A stretch of 64,000 nucleotides of DNA from Patescibacteria group bacterium (lineage in GTDB: Bacteria > Patescibacteriota > Patescibacteriia > Patescibacteriales > UBA12465). Numbering within the stretch: the stretch's first letter is position 1; every line of letters begins with the position of its first letter. Below, piece by piece: positions 4,166 to 38,270 of this stretch. The translations under genes and the position numbers were made by a program. The stretch covers positions 454,945-518,944 of the forward strand of contig JBAZKQ010000001.1 of assembly GCA_041650715.1 (NCBI GenBank), given 5' to 3'. Below the pieces are notes generated by a model, which saw only the letters and a list, made by a program, of their open reading frames with translations, was not told where the DNA came from and did no database searches.

Positions 4166-4882
4166 ATGAAAAAAATTTTTTTGCTGGCGTCTCTCGCGAT
4201 TATGATCGCACTGGGTATTTCTGCCTTGCCGGCTGCTACGAAAGCTGAGGGTATGAGTACGAAACTATCTGAGGATATGGGCACAAAACTGAGTGGCCGC
4301 ATCTTAATCGCCGTTCAAGCTAACGGCGAGACCTGGTATGTTAATCCGATTAATCAACAGCGGTATTTTCTCGGCCAACCGCTTGATGCCTTTAGTATCA
4401 TGCAACAATTAGGCCTGGGTATTTCCAACTCTGATTTCGATTCATATAACGGCACCGCTCCCATGAGACTATCGGGATTAATTTTACTTAAAGTTCAGTC
4501 GCATGGCGAAGCTTATTATGTAAATCCAGTTGATTTAAAAATGCATTATTTAGGCACACCGAGTCAAGCTCTCGCCTTAATGCGCAGTCTCAGCCTCGGG
4601 ATTACCAATGTTGATTTGAATAAAATGGCGATCCAAGAAAACTGGAACATTAGTATCAATGACTCGACATTTAGCCCCAAGGTTTTAACAGTGAAAAAAG
4701 GCGCGATGGTTACCTGGACAAATAACGAAAATACATCCCACACAGTAACTTCGCTTAATAACTTCAACTTTGGCGAAATCGCTCCCGGAAAAACCTATAG
4801 CCGGATGTTTAATGTTGTCGGCACCTATAATTATTATTCCCTTAACCAAAGTAGTATGACCGGAACTATTATTGTTCAATAA
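4166..4882 (+). CDS. Secreted protein with two internal ~55-aa repeats and a C-terminal cupredoxin-like domain
   Basis: Signal/anchor MKKIFLLASLAIMIALGISALPAATKA. The repeats are LSGRILIAVQANGETWYVNP... and LSGLILLKVQSHGEAYYVNP.... The C-terminus reads FSPKVLTVKKGAMVTWTNNENTSHTVT...GTYNYYS...MTGTIIVQ with no Cys ligand. Confidence 0.6.
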   Translation: MKKIFLLASLAIMIALGISALPAATKAEGMSTKLSEDMGTKLSGRILIAVQANGETWYVNPINQQRYFLGQPLDAFSIMQQLGLGISNSDFDSYNGTAPMRLSGLILLKVQSHGEAYYVNPVDLKMHYLGTPSQALALMRSLSLGITNVDLNKMAIQENWNISINDSTFSPKVLTVKKGAMVTWTNNENTSHTVTSLNNFNFGEIAPGKTYSRMFNVVGTYNYYSLNQSSMTGTIIVQ

Positions 4883-4944
4883 GACCAGTAATCACTTGCT
4901 ATTCAGGAATCGCTCAGGATGAATTTCTTGAGCGATTTTTTGTA

Positions 4945-27650: not shown

Positions 27651-28232
27651 TTATAACAAAGTCTTCTCTGCTTGTTGATATACATGACCGAGCTCATCGA
27701 CTATCGGATTATCCAATTTCGCTTTTAGGACCTTAAATATTTCCTCATATAACCAGAGCTTCTTCTCTTTCGGGGAGTTAAAATGTGCCCAAAGCTCTTC
27801 GCCCTTTTCCCTGTAAGCGTTAATCATTGACTGAAGATTATGAATTTTGTCGGCTGCGCAAACTATTAACGATTCCTCACTATCATCATAAAGTCCGTCT
27901 AAATATTTTTGCTTTCTTGCCTCCCAAGTTGCCTTTTCATCACTTTCAACGTTAGGATCTTTATCCTCACTTACCCCCTGAACAATCTCGGCCACCTTTT
28001 CGCCAAAATCTCGTTTAAGGTCTTCGTAGTAGTAACCTTTAACGTCCTCCAGAACGTCATGGAGCAGGCCACCAATGATTATATCTTCGTCTTCGGTATA
28101 ATTACTCAATATCCAGGCAACCGAGAAGGGGTGGCTGATATAGGGCAAATCATCATCACCCTTGCGCGTCTGCCCGAGATGCAGACGGCTCGCTAAATTA
28201 ACTGCTTTTTGTATTCTTGGACTTAATTTCAT
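27651..28232 (-). CDS. Small alarmone hydrolase-like HD protein (RelA/SpoT hydrolase domain only)
   Basis: AVNLASRLHLGQTRKGDDDLPYISHPFSVAWIL...GLLHDVLEDV...DKIHNL. Confidence 0.8.
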   Translation of the reverse strand: MKLSPRIQKAVNLASRLHLGQTRKGDDDLPYISHPFSVAWILSNYTEDEDIIIGGLLHDVLEDVKGYYYEDLKRDFGEKVAEIVQGVSEDKDPNVESDEKATWEARKQKYLDGLYDDSEESLIVCAADKIHNLQSMINAYREKGEELWAHFNSPKEKKLWLYEEIFKVLKAKLDNPIVDELGHVYQQAEKTLL

Positions 28233-28710
28233 ATTCGTATTCGCTTAAATGATTAATAATGAAGTTGGCAGCATTAATTATGTTCTTCTTGTTTCTTAAC
28301 ATATTTCCGCCCGATTCATAAAATAGAACTGGGGCTGCACCATTTATTTCTTCCGGCCTACTTACCATTGAAGTTATAAAGGCATTTAGATGGCTTGACT
28401 GGTCAGACAATACTCCGGTTATTCTTCCCAGTCTAATGCCAATATGCTCATTAGCAACTTTATATCTCGTTACTCCCGGATCGAATATAAAGAGCGCGAA
28501 TTCTTCACAGACTTCTAGTGCCTGGCTCCGAATAAAATCTATGCCTCTAAAATACTCTCCTATTATAGCATTTATTTCCATTAAAGCTTTCGGGGCGAGA
28601 CTAAGGCGCGGTAATTCTTTCGCCATGTAAAGCAGATTGTCGCAAATCTCGTTAATCTGCCAATAGATTTCCGAACTCTTTTCTTTCATTTTGTTTTCGA
28701 TATTTTTCAT
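28198..28710 (-). CDS. Hypothetical protein, first gene of the leader-controlled operon
   Basis: AGGAGG (28724-28719) lies 8 nt before the ATG at 28710. The GTG at 28719 in the ORF track is part of the SD. The 3' end overlaps the HD gene by 35 nt. Confidence 0.55.
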   Translation of the reverse strand: MKNIENKMKEKSSEIYWQINEICDNLLYMAKELPRLSLAPKALMEINAIIGEYFRGIDFIRSQALEVCEEFALFIFDPGVTRYKVANEHIGIRLGRITGVLSDQSSHLNAFITSMVSRPEEINGAAPVLFYESGGNMLRNKKNIINAANFIINHLSEYEYEIKSKNTKSS

Positions 28711-28738
28711 ATTTATCACCTCCTTACTAGCTTAACCA

Positions 28739-28927
28739 CAAAAAAAGCGGCTAAGAGATTTCACCAAAAGATATAAATATCTCTATAGTTGAAATCTCCC
28801 AACCGCCTTAACGATTAGTCATTTATTTCATCTGGCTTGCCGCAGATTTCCCAGCTTGCCTATCCGCTTATAGCGGAAGAAATAAATGGCGCCTTTATCC
28901 TTAGCGCGAAGTAGGGTTGTTAATTAT
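28739..28927 (-). promoter_or_regulatory. Structured leader RNA (riboswitch or attenuator candidate, class unknown) ending in an intrinsic terminator
   Basis: A 10-bp closing helix CAUUUAUUUC/GAAAUAAAUG (28888-28879 with 28829-28820) encloses a 3-way junction (UCCGC-UAUAA-GCGGA; CUGG...CCAG). A 17-bp terminator stem plus U7 follows (28806-28739). The GAAAUCU inside the junction equals the terminator 3' arm. Confidence 0.5.
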
Positions 28928-28962: not shown

Positions 28963-29071
28963 GTTTACTAACTTAAGTATGTAATACAGCGGGGCTCCGC
29001 AGATTACATATTTACGGAATTATTTAATATATATCCGGCGATCAAGATAAGCCTGGATAAACTAAGCAAAA

Positions 29072-29794
29072 TTAAGTTAACGACCACGTCCAACTAGTTC
29101 TATAAACGACCTTATTATCTTTTGATGTCCAAATTCTTTTCTCCCACATATCAGTTTTCGGATCACCTCCAAATTTACTAGATTCATTCATGTCTTTATA
29201 AACATCCTCGCCTATATAAATATGATATTGACCTTCAGAAAGAGATGACAGTTTCACCGCATAATTAGTGGCATTACCAACCCAAACTAAATCATTGTTA
29301 TTTTCACCTCTAATACCGCCCCTTACTATTAAAACTTTTCCGACCTCTATTCCTATCCCGAAATCAAATTCTAGATCACTCAATTGATTATTATTACTAA
29401 AATAGGTATCTAATTTAGGCTTTAAAACTTTTAAACAAAACCAGCTCATTTGCATAGCTGCTTTTGCTGCATTAGTTCTTTTTGACCCTCCGCTAAAAAC
29501 AATTAAAACACCGTCACCGTTAAAGCTTCTCAATTCTCCATTATTAAACTTTGCAATTTTTGCAACTCCATATAAAAACGATTTATACATTTTTGCGGCA
29601 GTAGTTCTCCTGAAACCGTCCACAATTTTTGTAGACTCTCTAATATCAATAAACAACATCGCCAATTCCATCTCCCTACCTTTTTTACCAAATTCCAAAT
29701 CTCCAACATCAGGCACAACAGTGCCTTGAGTTATTTCATAGTTACCATCAAAAAAATCATCAACAGCTTTTTCTATATCGGCCTTATTACTCAT
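29072..29794 (-). CDS. Stand-alone class III nucleotidyl cyclase (Pycsar PycC-like)
   Basis: MELAMLFIDIRESTKI (metal Asp), FNGDGVLIVF (second metal Asp), VWVGNATNYAVKL. It is 240 aa with no sensor domain and lies 3 nt after the small TM protein gene. Confidence 0.75.
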   Translation of the reverse strand: MSNKADIEKAVDDFFDGNYEITQGTVVPDVGDLEFGKKGREMELAMLFIDIRESTKIVDGFRRTTAAKMYKSFLYGVAKIAKFNNGELRSFNGDGVLIVFSGGSKRTNAAKAAMQMSWFCLKVLKPKLDTYFSNNNQLSDLEFDFGIGIEVGKVLIVRGGIRGENNNDLVWVGNATNYAVKLSSLSEGQYHIYIGEDVYKDMNESSKFGGDPKTDMWEKRIWTSKDNKVVYRTSWTWSLT

Positions 29795-29797
29795 ATG

Positions 29798-30292
29798 CTA
29801 AAAAATTTTTACAAGAAAAAAAATGAAAATAATTATAAATGACAAAATAAAAATTGACACAGACTCTGAAAAAAATTTTAATTTTTTATTCACTATTAAA
29901 GAAGAAATATATATCTGATCTAGCAAATCATCTTTATAATCATCATCGTCATAAGCGATCATTTTTTCTTTATACTTTTTTAAACTGTTTTTTGCGATTG
30001 AGCCAAAATAAATCATAGACTCTTTACCCGTGCTAACTTTAACTGTCGGTAAAATCGAAAAAATTGTTTTTAATACACTATAAAAACACAGTATTAATAC
30101 TAATATCAATATAACGATATCGAAGCAGCTTACATTTTTAATATATGAAACAAATTTTTCAAAGTCAGTGCTGGAAATAATTATAGTTAAACAGACACCC
30201 TGAAAAGCAAGCCAAATACTTGACTTTTGGTCAGCGGATCTTATCCATTCATGTATTACACTTAAATTATTTTCCAAGTTTTCCTTATTCAT
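29798..30292 (-). CDS. Small three-TM protein (Pycsar PycTM-like effector candidate)
   Basis: 164 aa. N-terminal IHEWIRSADQKSSIWLAFQG, then three hydrophobic helices. It sits between res and the cyclase with 3-nt gaps. Confidence 0.5.
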   Translation of the reverse strand: MNKENLENNLSVIHEWIRSADQKSSIWLAFQGVCLTIIISSTDFEKFVSYIKNVSCFDIVILILVLILCFYSVLKTIFSILPTVKVSTGKESMIYFGSIAKNSLKKYKEKMIAYDDDDYKDDLLDQIYISSLIVNKKLKFFSESVSIFILSFIIIFIFFLVKIF

Positions 30293-30295
30293 AGT

Positions 30296-32977
30296 TTATT
30301 TTGAATAAATATCTATAAAAGACTGATAGTTATCAATCTCCTTATAATTAACCTTTATAACTTCAAAATGCTTTTTAGCGGATTCTATTTTCGCTTTTTC
30401 TGTTGGACGTAAATTATCAATGTCACCCTTAGTTTCAATCACAAAATACACCTTTTCACTTTCGTTTCCTCTTAGGTCACGCTTAGCTGTAACTATAGCC
30501 CAATCAGGATTATAACTTCCAACAGGAGTCTCAACCTTATACCAATTAGGCATCTTAATAAACAACTTAATTTGTTCATCATGTTCAAGGTCTAGGGCAA
30601 AATTCATTTCTACATCAGAATCATGAACAATGGCATCGTAAATAGACCTAGTAACTGGCAAGGTAGAATCCTTATAGCTTTCAAGCGTTTTAAATTCCTC
30701 TACTTTATAAGAATCAGAAATTACTTCATAGCTCACTTGCTCAACATAGGTCTTTACAAGTTCCTGTTTAATAATTTTACTTGCCTCAACAATGAAACGA
30801 TCAGGATTATTGAAGAAGGCCTCCCAATTATTTGCTTTAAGCACTATATCGGCAACAGTAGCCCGAGTAAGACGAGTTTGTGTCTTAATTTCGGAGATAC
30901 AGTCAATCGTTCTGCTTTGTGTGGCCACTATTTCGCCTGATTCGGACCCCAGAGCAAGAGATTTAACTCCTTCCACGGATATATTGATACCAGCACGCTC
31001 AACGCGAATGTGGGGCTTTTGTAGTCGAATCTCAGAAACAGCCTTTGCGGAATTAGTAATTAGTGATTCCGTGTTTACTTTTACTAAGTAACGAGTCTTT
31101 TTTGAAATACGGTCCCACAATTCCTTAAAGTTTTCATCTTTTTGAAAACCGGGCTTAAGTACGATCTTGCTGCGCTGTTTTGCATTGTAAGGCAACTGAG
31201 GTGTCTTATAAATACCATCTTCTTGGAATTCTGCCTGCAAACTTGCGACGTAGTCGGCATAACTTATATTGGCGATAACTGAAAGTAAGTTAATGTGCCT
31301 ATCAAAAATACGATCACCGTCTTGATTGACGCAAAGACGCATGCCGCGACCAATCTCTTGCCGCTTCTTCATGGTTGAAGTTGTTTCGTTTAAAGTACAG
31401 ATATTAAACACATTAGGATTATCCCAACCCTCTCGGAGTGCTGAATGGGAGAAAATAAACTCGACAGGCTCAGAAAAAGACAAAAGACGTTCCTTATCCT
31501 TCATGATAAGCTCATAGGCTTCATCATTTTTCTCAATAGCTGATTCTTGTTCAACAAAACTACCATCCTTCTTTTTCGCAAAATATCCGGTATGAAGTGA
31601 ATCAGTGGAATTCTGCCCTAGCGTAAACGTGTCTTTTACTTTTGATAATTCTTCTGTAAATATCTTACGAATTAATCCATCAGCGCCGGCATAGTTTGCA
31701 ACTTTATCAATAAAGAAAAGACTAAGCACTTTAATATCAGAGTCTTTATATTTTTGTTTTTTCTCAATGTGAAGTCGGATAGTCTCAGAAATTTGTCTTC
31801 GCCATATATCTTCCTTATTTTGATTAATTGCAGTCCCTCTAGAAAGAATAAACCCATTGGTAAAATGTACTTTACCCTCAGAGCCAAACTCAGGCGCATC
31901 AGCATCTATATTCGAAACCACATATCCGCTATAAGCCTTGTTATTAGTTATATTTACAAGATCATCTCCTTTTTTTAAATTAATCGCCTTAATTTTTCTA
32001 TTACCATCACCATCTGCAAATGCGAGTTCAGCTTTTGCTTTAATGCCACTGGCGGTTTTTGCTGGTTTCGCTTCAACAAAAACCATATGAGGAGTAGAGC
32101 TACCACTATCGTCATCCGTTACAGAGAAAACCTCTATTTTTTTAACAAGACCTAACTGGTAAGCGTCATATGGGGTAAGCTGATGAACAAGGTTATATAG
32201 ATTTTTATGAGTAGCAGAATAACGCAAACGGAATAATGCATTGAAATTTTCAAGAGCTTTCTTTGTTGCTTCACCCTCCATATTTTGAGGCTCATCAAGA
32301 ATAAGGATTGGATTAGTCTTTTTAATAAACTCGATTGGTTGTTCGCCTTGCATTTGGTCCCGGACACCATAAAGAACATTAGCATCTTTATTAAACGCTC
32401 CAACTGTCATGACCATGATATTAATCACACTGCTATCAGCAAAATGACGAACTTGAGATATATTCTTTGATTTGTATTCATAAAATCTAAAAGGGGTATT
32501 TGCATACAATTCTTTGAAGTGATCTTCGGTAATTTTGAGGGTTTTAATAACACCCTCGCGGATAGCAACGGAAGGTACTAAAATAATAAACTTCTTCCAG
32601 CCATACTTTTGATTAAGCTCAAAGATAGTTCGCAAATAAACATAAGTCTTACCCGTACCGGTTTCCATCTCAATTGAGATGTCTTTAACATTCGCTTCAA
32701 GACCGATAGGTGATCCTTCTTCAGTAAGTAAAGCAAAACCATCTTCGGTTAAAAGTTTATCCCCACCTGAGATTGCTAAATTTTGCGCTTTTTGACAATT
32801 CTGAATGTTTTTTAATATATCGTCATCTGATAAAGTCATTAGATTTGGATAAATACCAAATAAACCAGCTCCAGCTATAGTCTGTTCTGTAGTTTTTTCT
32901 TGCCCATCAAAACAATCAACTACTGAGTTGATGGCTTGTAATTGGAATTCTTGGTTTGGGTCAAACTTAAATTTCAT
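30296..32977 (-). CDS. res: Type III restriction enzyme Res subunit (SF2 helicase plus PD-(D/E)xK nuclease)
   Basis: METGTGKTYVY (Walker A), ILDEPQNM (motif II), SALREGWDNPNV (motif VI), C-terminal YNPDWAIV...YFVIETKG. Confidence 0.9.
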   Translation of the reverse strand: MKFKFDPNQEFQLQAINSVVDCFDGQEKTTEQTIAGAGLFGIYPNLMTLSDDDILKNIQNCQKAQNLAISGGDKLLTEDGFALLTEEGSPIGLEANVKDISIEMETGTGKTYVYLRTIFELNQKYGWKKFIILVPSVAIREGVIKTLKITEDHFKELYANTPFRFYEYKSKNISQVRHFADSSVINIMVMTVGAFNKDANVLYGVRDQMQGEQPIEFIKKTNPILILDEPQNMEGEATKKALENFNALFRLRYSATHKNLYNLVHQLTPYDAYQLGLVKKIEVFSVTDDDSGSSTPHMVFVEAKPAKTASGIKAKAELAFADGDGNRKIKAINLKKGDDLVNITNNKAYSGYVVSNIDADAPEFGSEGKVHFTNGFILSRGTAINQNKEDIWRRQISETIRLHIEKKQKYKDSDIKVLSLFFIDKVANYAGADGLIRKIFTEELSKVKDTFTLGQNSTDSLHTGYFAKKKDGSFVEQESAIEKNDEAYELIMKDKERLLSFSEPVEFIFSHSALREGWDNPNVFNICTLNETTSTMKKRQEIGRGMRLCVNQDGDRIFDRHINLLSVIANISYADYVASLQAEFQEDGIYKTPQLPYNAKQRSKIVLKPGFQKDENFKELWDRISKKTRYLVKVNTESLITNSAKAVSEIRLQKPHIRVERAGINISVEGVKSLALGSESGEIVATQSRTIDCISEIKTQTRLTRATVADIVLKANNWEAFFNNPDRFIVEASKIIKQELVKTYVEQVSYEVISDSYKVEEFKTLESYKDSTLPVTRSIYDAIVHDSDVEMNFALDLEHDEQIKLFIKMPNWYKVETPVGSYNPDWAIVTAKRDLRGNESEKVYFVIETKGDIDNLRPTEKAKIESAKKHFEVIKVNYKEIDNYQSFIDIYSK

Positions 32978-32982
32978 AATTA

Positions 32983-34800
32983 TTAAATGGTTTTCAGATC
33001 AAGGTTAAGCGCTAAATTAGCAGCCATCGTGTCGTCCAAAGCGCCCTCAAGACAGATAAATAATTTATCTTTATACAATTTATCAGTAAGCGCTTTTACG
33101 GTTTCTGGGGTAAGTTTTCTTTCAAGACAAACAAAAAAATGCTGTTCACCATCGGTAATTTGATAAACATTATTCTTACCAAGTAAAATTTTATCAACCT
33201 TACTATTCAGCGACAAACCCTCTTTTACGATATTCTCATAGATGATACTAATATCATTTTCCTTATCAAACAATTGGCTTTGTTTTGCTTTATCCAAATA
33301 GGTAATAAATGCTTGTTGATTCTCTTCGGATGACTTTTGAGGATTAAAAACAAAAGTATTTTCAGGGTAGTTTGATTCGGAAAGTATAAAAAACTTAAAA
33401 CCTGAATTAATAGGTTTTGGATTTTTACCATAGCCATTAATAACATTTTTAATTCTAGTTTTAGTGATATCTAGAATTGTTTTAAAACCATACTTATAGC
33501 CTAGAGTATCTGTGTCTATTTTTTCGGGCAACTGCACAGTAATAAACTTACGATTGCCACCATCCAGTTCGTTCTGTGCTAAAACAGCATGAGCGGTCGT
33601 ACCTGATCCAGCAAAAAAATCAAGAATAATATCATTTTGGTTATTTTTTGTAGTATGAAAAATAAGTTTTTGTATCAAAGCTACAGGCTTTACGGTCTCA
33701 AATTCATGAACATCCGTGCCTAAAACTTCTGTCAATTCTGATTTACCCGTTTCAGCAGTCCCATAAGTATCTTTATCAAAAAAATGGGACCAAAAAGGAC
33801 TAAACCTTTCAAGGTTTTCATCATCAGGTCTTATTCTGAAGTATGCCTTGCCGTCAATCACTTCTACATCTCCTCGTTCTTGAAAGAATTGCACAGTATC
33901 AACTCCAACTTTCCACTGAAAACCATCTCTAGGAGAAACTCCAAGAATTGGATAAATCATTGACTGTCTTCCTCTCATGCCTATGGCAGACATTTCTTCG
34001 ACAACTTTTAATCGATACCACCCCTTGTCATCGTTTTTATCATAAACCTTCTGACCGGTTATCTCGAGATTAAACCTCATCTTTTCATTCAGTTTTTTGT
34101 AACTCAAAACATACTCTGTTTTTGATTGAAATTGTTCTCGTGCCGTCTCGGTGTTTTGTGCCTTAGTCCTTTTTTCCCAAGTAATTGTTCCTATAAAATT
34201 TTCTTCCCCAAAAATCTCATCCATTAACATTCTTAAATGATGAACTTCATTATCATCAATTGATACAAAAATAACGCCATCCTCGCGCAAAAGGTTCCAA
34301 GCTAATTTTAGACGAGGATACATCATGGAGAGCCAGTCGCTGTGATAGCGTCCGTTAGTTTCTTTGTTAGTTGTTGTGCTCTCTCCAGATTCGGTCTTTT
34401 GACCTGTTTGTTTAAGATAATTATCAAGCGGTGAACTAAAATCATCATTGTATACAAAATCGTGACCGGTATTGTAGGGCGGATCAATATAAATCATTTT
34501 TACCTTTTCAAAATATGCTTTCTGCAAAAGTTTTAAAACCTCGAGATTATCTCCTTCAATAAAAAGGTTCTCAGACTCATCCCATTTAATACTTTCTTCC
34601 GGCTTAGGATTAAGAGTTAACCTGCTAGGAATTAAAACGCTTTTAATAGCATTGCTTTTGCCGGCCCAGGTGAAAGAAAACTTATCGGACAAATTAATTG
34701 ACTGTGAACTTAGCTCCTCAATATATTTTTGTAAATTCAAAGACTTCTCAAAAAGTAAGTCGTCAGAGGTTAAATTAATTTTTGTGGGTTTTTTATTCAT
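32983..34800 (-). CDS. mod: Type III restriction-modification Mod subunit (beta-class N6-adenine/N4-cytosine DNA methyltransferase)
   Basis: IYIDPPYNTGHDF (DPPY) lies before ILDFFAGSGTTAHAV (FxGxG). It is directly upstream of res. Confidence 0.9.
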   Translation of the reverse strand: MNKKPTKINLTSDDLLFEKSLNLQKYIEELSSQSINLSDKFSFTWAGKSNAIKSVLIPSRLTLNPKPEESIKWDESENLFIEGDNLEVLKLLQKAYFEKVKMIYIDPPYNTGHDFVYNDDFSSPLDNYLKQTGQKTESGESTTTNKETNGRYHSDWLSMMYPRLKLAWNLLREDGVIFVSIDDNEVHHLRMLMDEIFGEENFIGTITWEKRTKAQNTETAREQFQSKTEYVLSYKKLNEKMRFNLEITGQKVYDKNDDKGWYRLKVVEEMSAIGMRGRQSMIYPILGVSPRDGFQWKVGVDTVQFFQERGDVEVIDGKAYFRIRPDDENLERFSPFWSHFFDKDTYGTAETGKSELTEVLGTDVHEFETVKPVALIQKLIFHTTKNNQNDIILDFFAGSGTTAHAVLAQNELDGGNRKFITVQLPEKIDTDTLGYKYGFKTILDITKTRIKNVINGYGKNPKPINSGFKFFILSESNYPENTFVFNPQKSSEENQQAFITYLDKAKQSQLFDKENDISIIYENIVKEGLSLNSKVDKILLGKNNVYQITDGEQHFFVCLERKLTPETVKALTDKLYKDKLFICLEGALDDTMAANLALNLDLKTI

Positions 34801-34839: not shown

Positions 34840-36567
34840 CTAAGACTTTAGATATATGTCTACCAAGGTTTGAATAATTTTATTTATCTTAAATTTCTTC
34901 AATTCATCCTTATCGGTTAAATAATCATGATTGTTATGCACTGAAGAATTCACGGCCTTACGAAATATAGAAACATCTGTATTAAACGTTTCTATTTTAT
35001 CCTTCACGCCAGGTGAAGTAAAATTAGTACGGTTATCATACAAATTTGCTATCAAATGAGAGAAATTCAACGTCCTGCCTTGACCTGTATTAAACCATAA
35101 ATCTGGCTGTTTTGGATATTTTTTCTCCAAGATATGAGTAACTAAGTTTTCTATTATCTTTCTGCACATCCAAAAAGATGCATTAGGGTAGTTCTTTTCA
35201 TGACACTCATTTGCTTCGTAAACAATTTGGTTATAATGAGTACTAGGGAATCCAGTTTTTACATCAATAAGTTGCGTTGATTTATCAGGACGATTACTTG
35301 TAGTAACTTTTGATTTCTGAACTTTTATTGTTTTAATTTTGCTCTTCCTAGCATGACCTTTAACTCGCCCTTTTTCTTGAGCATTTCGTAACACAACAAA
35401 TTCTCTGATGGCAGTTGTAACAAAATCAATCAAATCATAATACTCTGAATTATTTATGACGCCCTCTCTGGTAGTAGTATCTTCAATTTGAGGATTGTTA
35501 GCTTTGTTTATTGATACAGTGCTAAAAATTTGAGTATTTCCAGGTATATCGGAAGCATTTCTAGACCATTGATCTAGCCCTATCCAATCTGCCTCTTTAT
35601 CTCCGTATGGCTTAACTCTAAAATGGTCACGATATAATTTTATTCCACCATATTCATTTAACACTGAGCGAATATATTCTAAATCCTTGCTAACAATCTC
35701 CGCGCCAGTATTTCTTTTCCAGCTATCTGGTGTTTTATAATAAAAATATAATTCAAATTTAGCATCACCACACGACAGCCCCTTACTTAATTCCTTTTTT
35801 TCTTTCTTAATTAATTTACCGAGTTTAAAAAACTCGAAGCTAAAAATTTTTTTCTTTGTTAGGCTTACTTTAAATGAATAAGCCGATTTATCAAAAAAAT
35901 CCTTCTTAATTTTTGGTAAATCAACACTTTTATCGCCTATATTCTCTTTTATTTTAAACTTTTTAGGAGGATCAATCGGGGAAATTAACAAATTTAAATC
36001 TCGTAACAATGACTTTATTTTATCTTTATCGTTCCAACTGCCTTTTAATTCTTTTATCTCTAAAGACGTACCGTGAGGCACTTTGTTTTTCGCCATTTTC
36101 CATGTCTCAATATCAATATCAGTTGCCTTACTGCTATCAGAAAATTTACTCCAATCGAATTCTAGCTCATACCCATTTTTTTCCAGTTTCGATTTTGTAG
36201 ACAAAATCATTTTATGTCCCAGGCTATGAGAAGCAAATCTGCCTATACCCTTCGCGCCTACTGGGACCCTGTGATAAATATCTGTTTTTGTAATCGTCTT
36301 TTTATGTGGCGATCCTATATCCATGAATCGATCTTTAATATCAGATAATCCCATCCCAATACCGTCATCGCTTATTTTAATAGATGCGTTATGTTTTTCT
36401 TTGTCTAAAAAATCAACGCCCACAGTAGTACTATCAGCGTCATAGGCGTTTTTTATTAATTCTGCTACGGCGACATTAGGATTTGATATTGATTCCTCGC
36501 CTAGCTCAGTAATTATATTACCATTAAATGTAAATCGAAAATTGCTAATTTTTTCTCTGTCCGGCAT
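34840..36567 (-). CDS. GHKL (HATPase_c_3 / MORC-like) ATPase with a C-terminal helical domain
   Basis: ELIKNAYDAD (N box), ISDDGIGMG (G1), GAKGIGRFA (G2), transducer-like GIKLYRDHFRVKPYGDKEADWIGLD. The C-terminal ~130 aa resemble DUF4145-type helical domains. Its start lies 1 nt after the dcm stop. Confidence 0.75.
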   Translation of the reverse strand: MPDREKISNFRFTFNGNIITELGEESISNPNVAVAELIKNAYDADSTTVGVDFLDKEKHNASIKISDDGIGMGLSDIKDRFMDIGSPHKKTITKTDIYHRVPVGAKGIGRFASHSLGHKMILSTKSKLEKNGYELEFDWSKFSDSSKATDIDIETWKMAKNKVPHGTSLEIKELKGSWNDKDKIKSLLRDLNLLISPIDPPKKFKIKENIGDKSVDLPKIKKDFFDKSAYSFKVSLTKKKIFSFEFFKLGKLIKKEKKELSKGLSCGDAKFELYFYYKTPDSWKRNTGAEIVSKDLEYIRSVLNEYGGIKLYRDHFRVKPYGDKEADWIGLDQWSRNASDIPGNTQIFSTVSINKANNPQIEDTTTREGVINNSEYYDLIDFVTTAIREFVVLRNAQEKGRVKGHARKSKIKTIKVQKSKVTTSNRPDKSTQLIDVKTGFPSTHYNQIVYEANECHEKNYPNASFWMCRKIIENLVTHILEKKYPKQPDLWFNTGQGRTLNFSHLIANLYDNRTNFTSPGVKDKIETFNTDVSIFRKAVNSSVHNNHDYLTDKDELKKFKINKIIQTLVDIYLKS

Positions 36568-36568
36568 A

Positions 36569-37819
36569 TTAAAAAAATTTAATTAATTTATTAGCAATCA
36601 ACGACGATAGCATAGGCGGTACCGCATTTCCAATTTGTTTGTATTGAGCAGATCTACTTCCTTCAAATATAAAATCATCAGGAAATGTCTGAAGACGAGC
36701 CGCCTCTCTAACTGTTAGCGATCTATTCTGCTCAGCATCTGGATGTATATAATAATGTCCATCTTTTGATATGTGCGCTATAACAGTATGACTGCTGGCC
36801 GCAGCACCATCAACAACTTTAAACCTATCTAAAAATCCCGTCTGGTTCTTGTGAGTCTTTAATTTATTTGGCAGTTCATTATATTTTATATTATGACCAT
36901 TATTCTTCTCCTTAACCGCCATCTTGTAGATAGTCAGGTCTTGTTTGTTATTTGGTCGCGCAGCATGACCCAGCAAAACTCCGAAATTATTTGTAATACC
37001 CAACTTATCTAATATCTTAGATTTACTTTTAAACTTAGTCGCGACAGAACCTTCTCCGGACTTTAATTTTGGTAGATCTAATAAAAAATCACTAACTTTA
37101 TAGTTTCTGTCTACTTTGTCAAAAACTGGATATGATTTTAAATTAGCCTTGGAATTCCAACCTATAAGAATAACCCTTCTTCGTTCCTGAGGAACGCCAT
37201 ATTCAGCGGCATTCAATATGCTAAATTCGGTGTTGTAACCGGCAGCTTTCATCGCTAGACGCATACTATTCAAATACATTCCCTTACCAGAACTTAATAG
37301 ACCGGGAACATTTTCGAAAATAAAAACCTTCGGTTTAAGAGCCTTTAAAAATTCCACATAATACTGATATAGAAATTTTCTAGGATCGCGTTTCATGTGT
37401 TTCCTGTCCGACCCTCTCCCAATATGTGAATACGCCTGACAAGGCGGCCCACCAATAATAATATCTAAATCGGCACCGTTAAGTCTTTCTTTTACTTCAC
37501 CAATTAACTGAGCATAATTGTCACGACTTATTTTTTCCTGAATAACAGAATCTATCTCTTTATTTAATTTATATTTGCTAACTATTTCTTCCCTAGTTTT
37601 TTCTCCTAACAGATATTTTTTATACTCCTCTAGTTTTCCTTTCTTTCTTAAAGCATGATAAACCATTCTCGTTCGAATCGTCTCGCAAGCCTCTTTATCC
37701 ATTTCAATATGCGCCACAATATCACATCCGGATAAAATAAAACCTTCAGAAAAACCTCCGACTCCGGCAAAAAGGTCTAACACCATTGGCTTTTTAGTTT
37801 GCGATTTTTTTTTCTTCAT
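36569..37819 (-). CDS. dcm: DNA (cytosine-5) methyltransferase
   Basis: LDLFAGVGGFSEGF (I), GGPPCQAYS (IV), FIFENVPGL (VI), QERRRVILIG (VIII), TVREAARLQTFPDDF (IX), GNAVPP (X). Confidence 0.95.
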   Translation of the reverse strand: MKKKKSQTKKPMVLDLFAGVGGFSEGFILSGCDIVAHIEMDKEACETIRTRMVYHALRKKGKLEEYKKYLLGEKTREEIVSKYKLNKEIDSVIQEKISRDNYAQLIGEVKERLNGADLDIIIGGPPCQAYSHIGRGSDRKHMKRDPRKFLYQYYVEFLKALKPKVFIFENVPGLLSSGKGMYLNSMRLAMKAAGYNTEFSILNAAEYGVPQERRRVILIGWNSKANLKSYPVFDKVDRNYKVSDFLLDLPKLKSGEGSVATKFKSKSKILDKLGITNNFGVLLGHAARPNNKQDLTIYKMAVKEKNNGHNIKYNELPNKLKTHKNQTGFLDRFKVVDGAAASSHTVIAHISKDGHYYIHPDAEQNRSLTVREAARLQTFPDDFIFEGSRSAQYKQIGNAVPPMLSSLIANKLIKFF

Positions 37820-37871: not shown

Positions 37872-37900
37872 ATTTTACAATTTTAAAACCACAAAGTCAA
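37872..37900 (-). promoter_or_regulatory. Sigma-70 promoter of the dcm-led defence operon
   Basis: Minus strand reads TTGACT-17-TAAAAT. Confidence 0.5.
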
Positions 37901-37923: not shown

Positions 37924-37954
37924 AAAAAAATAAGCTAACATTAGCTTATTTTTT
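37924..37954. terminator. Bidirectional hairpin terminator after the tRNA
   Basis: A7-TAAGCTAA-ca-TTAGCTTA-T6. Confidence 0.65.
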
Positions 37955-37959
37955 GCTTG

Positions 37960-38270
37960 CTCCCAGGGTCGGATTCGAACCGACGACCAATTGGTTACAC
38001 TTATCCACTAATTTCTTAATGGGGTGGACTATATCATCATCCTTAAATTAAGGATGCGAGGCGCTTCGGGCCATCTTGCGATGGACCTACTCCCTTTCAG
38101 GATAGTCTCTGAACCTTCCATGACCTCCATGGCTTGGCTGCTGATTACCATATCCATATGGATTTAGGCTTCCAGACAATTCACCTCGTTTTCGGTGCTG
38201 ATTACTCAGCAGAGCTGCGTTTAGAACTACGTGTTCACAGCCAACTGCGCTACCGCTGCGCTACCTGGGA
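37960..38270 (-). tRNA. tRNA-Asn(GUU) interrupted by a group I intron (exons 38270-38237 and 37997-37960; CCA not encoded)
   Basis: 5' exon: TCCCAGG-TA-GCGC-AGCGGTA-GCGC-A-GTTGG-CTGT. 3' exon: TAA-CCAAT-TGGTC-GTCGG-TTCGAAT-CCGAC-CCTGGGA-G. Together they form a 72-nt cloverleaf with anticodon loop CUGUUAA and G73. Confidence 0.8.
37998..38236 (-). ncRNA. Group I self-splicing intron (239 nt, no ORF)
   Basis: P1 GGCUGU/GCAGCU has a U-G wobble at the 5' splice site, and the terminal nucleotide is G. GNRA hairpins are GCUGA-GUAA-UCAGC, CCAUC-GCAA-GAUGG and CCAUUAA-GAAA-UUAGUGG. Core strings AUGGUAAUCAGCAGCCAAGCC, UUCAGAGACUAUCC and GAUAUAGUCC resemble those of the Tetrahymena, Azoarcus and Anabaena introns. 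Confidence 0.8.

Follow-up and report, generated by a model that had tools for sequence, protein, structure and literature searches.

What are a nucleotide cyclase and a small membrane protein doing directly behind the nuclease gene of a type III restriction-modification (R-M) operon? The question is raised by two genes on the minus strand of a 64,000-nucleotide stretch of DNA from a Patescibacteria group bacterium (contig JBAZKQ010000001.1, positions 454,945 to 518,944), the whole of which we call the window. The analysis presented here indicates that the pair, which ends a six-gene defence island beside a tRNA-Thr gene, is very probably a two-gene Pycsar abortive-infection system that combines a PycTM membrane effector with a minimal, BcPycC-related PycC cyclase. 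As such, it is an ordinary member of a known family, the effector having already been flagged by NCBI annotation. The open reading frame (ORF) list reproduced all the positions, sizes and 3-nucleotide (nt) gaps given in an original prediction made from the sequence, and the motifs named there were likewise found (LFIDIRESTKI, NGDGVLIVF and GNATNYAVKL in the cyclase, IRSADQKSS in the membrane protein). The two genes are:

29072-29794, minus strand: PycC-type class III nucleotide cyclase, 240 amino acids (ORF list, Pfam, PADLOC, fold match)
29798-30292, minus strand: PycTM-type membrane effector, 164 amino acids (ORF list, Pfam PF18967, PADLOC PycTM)

Assignment of the cyclase to the PycC family

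Profile searches identified the PADLOC PycC model PDLC02367 as a match to residues 1-238 of the 240 in the cyclase (E 3.4e-80, 267 bits), followed by a second PycC model, PDLC00766 (5.3e-66), and the same two models come out best when BcPycC itself is searched. In line with this, the top sequence match in the PDB is 7R65, the structure of BcPycC, a clade B synthase of cyclic uridine monophosphate (cUMP) from Burkholderia cepacia (PMC11224242). The alignment runs from residues 6-238 against 6-228 at 31% identity (E 1.7e-29), as compared with 3e-5 for the best ordinary adenylate cyclase; matches to the Anabaena uridylate cyclase 8JSZ (marginal, E 0.01) and to the clade E structure 8JSF (E 0.015) are much weaker. 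An AlphaFold (AF2) model built on 23 homologues, with a predicted local distance difference test score (pLDDT) of 88.7, also has 7R65 as its top fold match (E 2.5e-23, TM-score 0.84/0.88), with 8JSZ second (TM-score 0.79), whereas generic class III cyclases reach TM-scores of about 0.6.

The residues required for catalysis appear to be intact. The metal-binding aspartates D50 and D94 align with D52 and D96 of BcPycC, while the transition-state residues N177 and K181 align with its N...K motif, and all four are invariant or nearly so in alignments; among the 23 homologues, F48, D50, N92, G93, D94 and G95 are invariant. The only Pfam match is Guanylate_cyc, at residues 42-203, which narrowly passes (25.2 bits against a cut-off of 21.9); the protein carries an N-terminal extension and, as had been proposed, no sensor domain. 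Taken together, profiles and model support the assignment of this protein as a PycC-family class III nucleotide cyclase with intact catalytic residues. The nearest clade, both by profile (the same two PADLOC models as BcPycC) and by fold (7R65 on top), is clade B; we nevertheless predict the cyclase to be clade-B-like and not a clade B member, and use only the former label, because residues Y50, D94 and R97 of BcPycC are not kept.

Could the cyclase instead be a housekeeping enzyme making cyclic AMP or cyclic GMP (cGMP), next to which an unrelated membrane protein happens to lie? The Pfam match, at 25 bits, is weak and generic, and so are the names given to the protein at JGI and NCBI (at the latter, adenylate/guanylate cyclase); an NCBIfam search returned no family for either the cyclase or the membrane protein. 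On the other hand, the Pycsar-specific profile scores far higher, at 267 bits, ordinary cyclases fall well short of BcPycC in the fold comparison (about 0.6 against 0.84), and the sequence comparison likewise groups the protein with Pycsar cyclases and not with housekeeping ones. In addition, as described below, the pairing with PycTM is kept across phyla, and both genes belong to a defence island of foreign composition. The housekeeping explanation is therefore strongly disfavoured, to the point of being highly improbable.

The membrane protein as a PycTM effector

The membrane protein matches the Pfam family PycTM (PF18967) at 6.9e-13, its 49.4 bits lying well above the cut-off of 27.2, as well as the PADLOC PycTM model PDLC02364 (6.3e-31), and its NCBI entry (MFA5131267.1) is named 'Pycsar system effector family protein'. 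By profile it thus falls within the PycTM family. The original prediction had named as counter-evidence a membrane protein outside PycTM and a cyclase among the housekeeping adenylate cyclases; both were checked, and neither outcome was observed. With the PADLOC PycC score of 3.4e-80 and 7R65 as the top structural relative of its neighbour, this supports the view, put forward in the original prediction, that a cyclase and a membrane effector here make up a Pycsar system.

Three transmembrane (TM) helices had been proposed for this protein. Hydropathy bears out two strongly hydrophobic segments, at ~56-80 and ~143-164, with a third, weaker one at ~24-41, so that two or three membrane segments is a better description. 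The AF2 model (pLDDT 82) is all-helical, with long helices at 3-41, 56-80 and 116-163, and the PADLOC label for related effectors is '2TM'. The conserved motifs HEWIRSADQK, IYFG and QIYISS are taken to be cytoplasmic. A fold search of the model against the PDB gave nothing significant (best E 0.8); there is no solved homologue, and the comparison tells nothing of the mechanism beyond the all-helical fold. The protein had also been called atypical for its lack of a cyclic-nucleotide-binding (CNB) domain; the absence holds, there being no CNB-domain fold in the model, but it is not atypical, since PF18967 is the sole precomputed Pfam match of the homologues of this PycTM protein, none of which has a CNB domain.

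We also considered CBASS (antiphage signalling that is based on cyclic oligonucleotides), which was rejected: '2TM' effector models match the membrane protein at 5e-19, more weakly than PycTM, and the gene beside it encodes a class III cyclase in place of the CD-NTase (cGAS/DncV-like) of CBASS.

Effector-first pairing in relatives

Relatives of the cyclase were gathered from 27 genome-contig loci, from contigs encoding specific homologues and from 70 metagenome loci (individual loci are referred to below by L numbers). Across 77 non-identical loci, with cyclase' denoting a second, different cyclase gene, the architectures are as follows:

TM gene, cyclase: 44 loci
cyclase', TM gene, cyclase: 15 loci
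TM gene, cyclase, cyclase': 3 loci
TM gene, cyclase', cyclase: 1 locus
cyclase, cyclase': 1 locus
cyclase alone: 13 loci, most of them cut by the contig end

Where the flanking sequence suffices, almost every relative thus has a PycTM gene immediately before the cyclase. The original prediction regarded the position of the TM gene before the cyclase as atypical. These counts overturn that view, as the effector-first order is the rule in the clade of the window cyclase. Both orders occur in annotated Pycsar systems on plasmids, with CNB-domain (CNBD) and Toll/interleukin-1 receptor (TIR) genes followed by a cyclase in Xanthomonas euvesicatoria, a CNBD gene followed by a cyclase in Sulfitobacter, and a cyclase followed by an effector in Streptomyces; furthermore, a TM-first pair has been described as a typical Pycsar system (PMC13069673). 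The effector-cyclase pairing is kept across phyla, in about 60 loci, and because it recurs in dozens of independent loci we set aside a chance pairing of the two genes in the window.

Many relatives have a three-gene arrangement in which the PycTM gene lies between two cyclase genes of different types (L006, L008, L015, L017-L019, L021 and L037, and further L038, L041, L043, L062, L070, L079, L085 and L089); L041:4694-6726 is an example. In most three-gene loci checked, the order is a clade D zinc-ribbon cyclase resembling AnPycC, then PycTM, then a cyclase of the window type, whereas in L023, L071 and L040 both cyclase genes come after the TM gene. The extra cyclase in the loci checked is of the AnPycC (clade D) type, with a K-G-D-G motif and a C-terminal Cys zinc ribbon, and that of L041 matches 8JSZ at 6e-70. 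Such loci suggest that one effector is served by two sensors, or that the cyclase is a heterodimer. The window has no second cyclase gene, and res stands at that position.

Predicted mechanism and nucleotide product

In Pycsar systems, PycC supplies a signal, PycTM damages the membrane and the infection is aborted (PMC11224242, PMC12489823). For the window pair we infer a similar course of events, in which a phage escapes restriction and an infection cue switches on a homodimeric PycC. The enzyme would then cyclise a pyrimidine nucleoside triphosphate, most likely uridine triphosphate (UTP), to give 3',5'-cUMP, and this cyclic nucleotide would activate PycTM, with the resulting membrane damage stopping the infected cell before phage release.

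Several points weigh against this picture. In BcPycC the pyrimidine base is selected by Y50, D94 and R97 (PMC11224242), which become F48, N92 and G95 here; only the first is conservatively kept, and the replacements are invariant among the 23 homologues. BcPycC is itself paired with a TIR effector and not with a TM effector (PMC11224242, PMC9117128). The abstract of a 2026 preprint describes Pycsar-related cyclases, termed 'Pucsar', that make cGMP and are accompanied by TM or TIR effectors (bioRxiv 10.64898/2026.08.12.744502). What is known of the Pycsar function of this cyclase subfamily comes from genes and models. Finally, co-transcription with res, taken up below, is judged from gene spacing, the promoter scan being uninformative and no terminator having been found directly after the cyclase.

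Since two of the three base-selecting residues of BcPycC are changed, the product could differ from cUMP, and the original prediction was right in its caution that sequence does not tell what the product is. It is a real, if minority, possibility that the same architecture works with a second messenger other than cUMP, namely cyclic cytidine monophosphate (cCMP) or, as in the cGMP-making Pucsar offshoot with its TM effectors (in the abstract cited above), a purine cyclic nucleotide. The equivalents of D94 and R97 of BcPycC are the invariant N92 and G95; EaPycC, which makes cCMP, has R142 and Q144 near the second metal-binding aspartate (PMC11224242), and N92 is also an amide residue. Yet both of the closest solved relatives by sequence and fold, 7R65 and 8JSZ, are cUMP synthases. 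Clades A-D make cUMP, with cCMP reported for clade E only (PMC11224242), and the clade E structure 8JSF is a far weaker match to the window cyclase. The subfamily also co-occurs with clade D cUMP-type cyclases around a single effector, an arrangement that suggests a shared signal between the two cyclase types of the three-gene loci. Because clades A-D make cUMP, the nearest solved relatives are cUMP synthases and PycTM is shared with clade D cUMP-type cyclases, we favour cUMP as the most likely product of the window cyclase.

The junction with res and exchange of the cassette

The pair is joined at its upstream end to the nuclease gene, and at its downstream end to a short tail:

30296-32977, minus strand: type III Res, 893 amino acids (Pfam ResIII, DEAD and RE_endonuc; PADLOC REase_III 1.2e-237)
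28994-29071, minus strand: 78-nt tail beyond the cyclase stop codon, shared with relatives and closing the common unit on the right (blastn)

In the ORF list, res and the PycTM gene are separated by positions 30293-30295, and the PycTM and cyclase genes by 29795-29797; on the minus strand the two junctions read TAA act ATG and TAG cat ATG, respectively. No Shine-Dalgarno sequence precedes either the PycTM or the cyclase start codon; the next gene downstream of the cyclase has a strong one (AAGGAGGTG). Gaps of 3 nt at both junctions, together with start codons that lack a Shine-Dalgarno sequence, make it probable that the pair is coupled translationally to res, with which it is most likely also transcribed. 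Such a placement probably provides for co-expression with a first-line defence and for joint transfer of both layers.

Close relatives share the junction: the order mod-res-PycTM-PycC and the 3-nt gap are found, at 86-87% DNA identity, in at least eight contigs that come from other samples and encode a cyclase 94% identical to that of the window. The proposal that the pair has been appended to the res operon is therefore sound in substance; it is not the atypical arrangement that it had been taken for, as it recurs with other R-M types and has a published hybrid precedent. A contig (L001 / L034, CAYYQX010000018.1, 1980 nt) with a cyclase 94% identical to that of the window and the same res-PycTM-PycC junction has been binned in a 'Muribaculaceae' metagenome-assembled genome; we take it to be probably mis-binned because the window is of Patescibacteria origin and the contig is short.

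The res gene of a further relative, L036, is closer still to that of the window (92% DNA identity), but its homology ends ~35 nt into the PycTM gene, of which a 16-codon remnant stays (L036:6154-6598). In place of the pair there is a gene for a small membrane protein with a single TM segment and a weak match to DUF4760 (19 bits, below the cut-off). Because a res gene this similar has had its cassette replaced, comparison of these loci indicates that the position behind res is a swap site, at which the cassette is exchangeable while the R-M system persists in its absence. At the other end of the pair, blastn homology with L028, L029 and L030 stops at 28994, 78 nt past the cyclase stop codon, beyond which the Pycsar-bearing relatives show four different downstream contexts. 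The 78-nt tail has no significant predicted structure (z -0.3 to -1.8).

Recurrent association with restriction nucleases

Upstream neighbours were evaluated in the 54 of the 77 loci that have enough upstream sequence. Of the 54, 14 have a gene for a restriction-type nuclease directly upstream, co-oriented and no more than 30 nt away, and 14 of the 19 tight upstream junctions in these loci are with nuclease genes. Once near-identical neighbours are removed, tight junctions number 12/38 upstream as against 4/36 downstream. The upstream nucleases fall into seven unrelated families:

type III Res of the window type
non-orthologous ResIII enzyme of ~770 amino acids (L041, L079)
type I HsdR (L062)
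MvaI/BcnI (L044, L049, L059, L065, L066)
GmrSD-HNH (L002, L045)
GHKL ATPase (L013)
pPIWI-nuclease-like protein (L009)

Where the preceding gene was checked, in the type I, type II, GmrSD-HNH and type III cases, it is the methylase that one would expect: HsdR follows HsdM and HsdS, MvaI/BcnI and the 770-residue Res each follow an N6_N4 methylase, and GmrSD-HNH follows an EcoRI-type methylase. The order in these cases is always methylase, nuclease, Pycsar. Across loci, this pattern of R-M adjacency is suggestive, the counts being raw ones and R-M genes very common.

Cyclases at least 85% identical to one another were found behind different upstream genes. DNA homology between such loci is 80-89% over ~1.22 kb and begins 8-11 nt before the TM start codon; in the cases examined, the homologous stretch takes in the end of the upstream gene, its final codons and stop codon. 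The nearest upstream neighbour is LexA-like in eight loci (L008, L017, L018, L019, L021, L023, L085 and L089) and resembles CapP, with a helix-turn-helix and a peptidase M78 domain, in two (L040 and L070); these genes are either co-oriented with the Pycsar module or divergent from it. In loci without an R-M neighbour, such LexA-like and CapH/CapP-like neighbours hint at DNA-damage-responsive control of the clade.

It is tempting to see in this Pycsar clade a portable tail module of ~1.2 kb that has been captured repeatedly, directly behind nucleases representing five or more unrelated R-M types (I, II, III and HNH/GmrSD-like), a generalisation that these comparisons allow us to put forward with low confidence. 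If it were true, and the module were functional there and not a matter of co-transfer alone, the trigger or expression of the cyclase would be tied to restriction activity or DNA damage, and what activates Pycsar cyclases would become directly testable.

A related explanation makes the pair a back-up that is coupled functionally to restriction, and not an independent Pycsar system with R-M as a mere neighbour. The cassette would be selected at the tail of R-M operons because its trigger or dosage depends on the restriction enzyme. It might fire when restriction is inhibited or overwhelmed, following the PrrC-EcoprrI paradigm, or it might respond to DNA damage or cleavage products. Such coupling would fit the 14 of 54 loci with a nuclease directly upstream, drawn from seven unrelated families and preceded by a methylase where checked, as well as the share of nucleases among tight upstream junctions (14/19) and the excess of tight junctions upstream over downstream after deduplication. 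It would also fit the LexA-like and CapP/M78-like neighbours, in eight and two loci, which point to DNA-damage-linked control, and a Pycsar-Thoeris hybrid operon in which synergy has been shown (PMC13069673). However, cassettes 80-89% identical stand behind different nucleases and also behind a gene for a TPR protein, with another behind a DnaJ gene, making direct protein-protein guarding of one particular enzyme unlikely. Moreover, the L036 res has lost the cassette, which R-M can thus do without; no defence genes are commoner than those of R-M systems, and 14/54 is a raw count; and many loci have no R-M neighbour at all. On balance, we regard functional coupling as rather doubtful, and retain co-expression and joint transfer as the probable sense of the placement behind res.

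In L044, a 96-nt perfect inverted repeat (1649-1744 and 4815-4910) bounds the methylase-MvaI/BcnI-PycTM-PycC unit. Its right arm reaches the contig end, and the same flanking sequence continues directly downstream of the cassette in L045. The repeat could mark a real invertible or mobile unit, or it could be a fold-back assembly artefact.

The defence island and its flanks

The pair ends an island of six co-oriented genes, which runs from 37819 to 29072 in the order C5 methylase, GHKL protein, mod, res, PycTM and PycC. The remaining features are:

32983-34800, minus strand: type III Mod methyltransferase, 605 amino acids (Pfam N6_N4_Mtase 6.7e-36; PADLOC MTase_III 3.5e-150)
34840-36567, minus strand: GHKL-ATPase, BbrUII/HgiDII-like, 575 amino acids (Pfam HATPase_c_3 4.2e-21; PADLOC REase_II 4.4e-15)
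36569-37819, minus strand: C-5 cytosine DNA methyltransferase, 416 amino acids, first island gene (Pfam DNA_methylase 2.9e-67)
37872-37900, minus strand: promoter-like site TTGACT-17-TAAAAT, closely preceding the first island gene (consensus scan only)
37959-38270, minus strand: tRNA-Thr(UGU) with a 239-nt group I intron, left flank of the island (Rfam, ARAGORN)

The six genes are distinct in composition, with a GC content at third codon positions (GC3) of 0.25-0.29 as compared with 0.42 +/- 0.06 in the remaining 46 long ORFs of the window. This composition identifies the island as foreign to the Patescibacteria genome and argues for its horizontal acquisition. The island is flanked by core genes at either end: DnaG and RpoD are among those at one end, and the other has genes for a SpoT-like HD protein and an S66 peptidase. 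A separate arrival of the Pycsar pair from the R-M genes was rejected on compositional grounds, as all six genes share the same GC3 range, and flanking repeats were rejected as att sites, consisting only of short direct or inverted matches that are AT-rich or terminator-like.

The presence of Mod and Res in one operon confirms a type III R-M system (PADLOC, Pfam). The first half of the island (34840-37819, minus strand) appears to be a second, type II-like restriction system, its C5 methylase and GHKL protein genes lying 1 nt apart; the GHKL protein matches the NCBIfam model restrict_BbrUII at 3.3e-25, below the cut-off and over its N-terminal part only. The site at 37872-37900 is a weak candidate promoter for a six-gene transcript, given that promoter-like sites in the region are as frequent as in shuffled sequence. 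A scan for terminators gave none directly 3' of the cyclase.

The island starts ~140 nt downstream of the tRNA-Thr gene, the anticodon loop of which holds a group I intron at 38000-38238 (Rfam RF00028 Intron_gpI, 88.6 bits, E 2.7e-23). The intron-containing gene was missed by the default tRNA scan and found by the intron mode of ARAGORN. Near it lie a strong promoter-like site (38308-38281) and, at 37925-37954, a perfect hairpin of 14 bp that has a T-run.

On the other flank, a candidate cis-regulatory leader RNA, riboswitch- or attenuator-like, is found at ~28715-28927 (minus strand), upstream of a 170-residue ORF (28198-28710) that overlaps the gene for the SpoT-like HD hydrolase (27651-28232). 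The predicted structure, for which no Rfam family gave a match, consists of a multi-stem domain followed by a hairpin of ~30 bp and a U7 run (minimum free energy -75 kcal/mol, z = -5.7). Two relatives, L112 and L113, carry an almost identical RNA, although their protein is only 62% identical; seven base pairs show compensatory changes, among just two independent lineages that could be compared.

Distribution and significance

The cyclase subfamily is highly conserved, at 65-76% identity across Patescibacteria, Acidobacteriota, Ignavibacteriales and Gammaproteobacteria, whereas identity falls to 26-41% among the effectors that these loci encode. Patescibacteria, of the candidate phyla radiation (CPR), account for about 15 of the 27 genome loci. 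The family is of modest size: in a set of 1.84 billion cluster representatives, 72 match at E <= 1e-30. Collections of phages and plasmids yielded distant relatives only, with less than 40% identity. In the searchable literature, we found no paper on Pycsar in R-M operons or in Patescibacteria.

The moderate interest of the locus comes from the recurrent link to restriction operons. A cassette that is joined to the 3' ends of diverse restriction genes and can be swapped would amount to modular layered immunity, with restriction first and abortive infection second, and the link may offer a handle on the trigger of Pycsar cyclases. The locus also documents a predicted abortive-infection system in an ultra-small, probably host-dependent bacterium, and a conserved, Patescibacteria-rich cyclase subfamily with altered base-selecting residues makes the nucleotide product worth measuring.

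Comparison with known systems

The closest known system by cyclase is BcPycC-PycTIR of B. cepacia LK29 (Tal et al. 2021, as cited in PMC11224242 and PMC9117128). Both cyclases are minimal single-domain enzymes of ~230-240 residues with the same N- and C-terminal extensions, aligning over their full length, and the effector-first order is also seen in the annotated plasmid relatives of the window cyclase, where the effectors have CNB or TIR domains. The systems differ in the effector, a CNBD-TIR NADase in the one and PycTM in the other, and in base selection, Y50, D94 and R97 of BcPycC being F48, N92 and G95 in the window cyclase.

AnPycC-AnPycTM of Anabaena sp. (clade D, 8JSZ; PMC11224242) resembles the window pair in combining a cyclase with a small TM effector, and the cyclase folds are similar (TM-score 0.79), although sequence similarity is marginal and the window has neither a clade D cyclase nor a zinc ribbon.

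Liu-DS6 is a hybrid operon of a clade F Pycsar and a type IV Thoeris system, for which experiments showed synergy, with co-transfer suggested as an additional advantage (PMC13069673). As in the window, the PycTM gene comes first and the cyclase second, in an operon shared with a second defence system. The partner there is Thoeris and not R-M, the cyclase belongs to the distant clade F and is not BcPycC-like, and the host is a gammaproteobacterium and not a member of the Patescibacteria.

Finally, the anticodon nuclease PrrC is encoded within the EcoprrI type Ic R-M locus, and is held and triggered by direct contact with the R-M enzyme. The signalling chemistry is unrelated to that of Pycsar, and such specific contact is unlikely for the window pair, given that near-identical cassettes of its type follow unrelated nucleases; what the two have in common is an abortive-infection effector placed in or behind an R-M operon, as a second line of defence after restriction.

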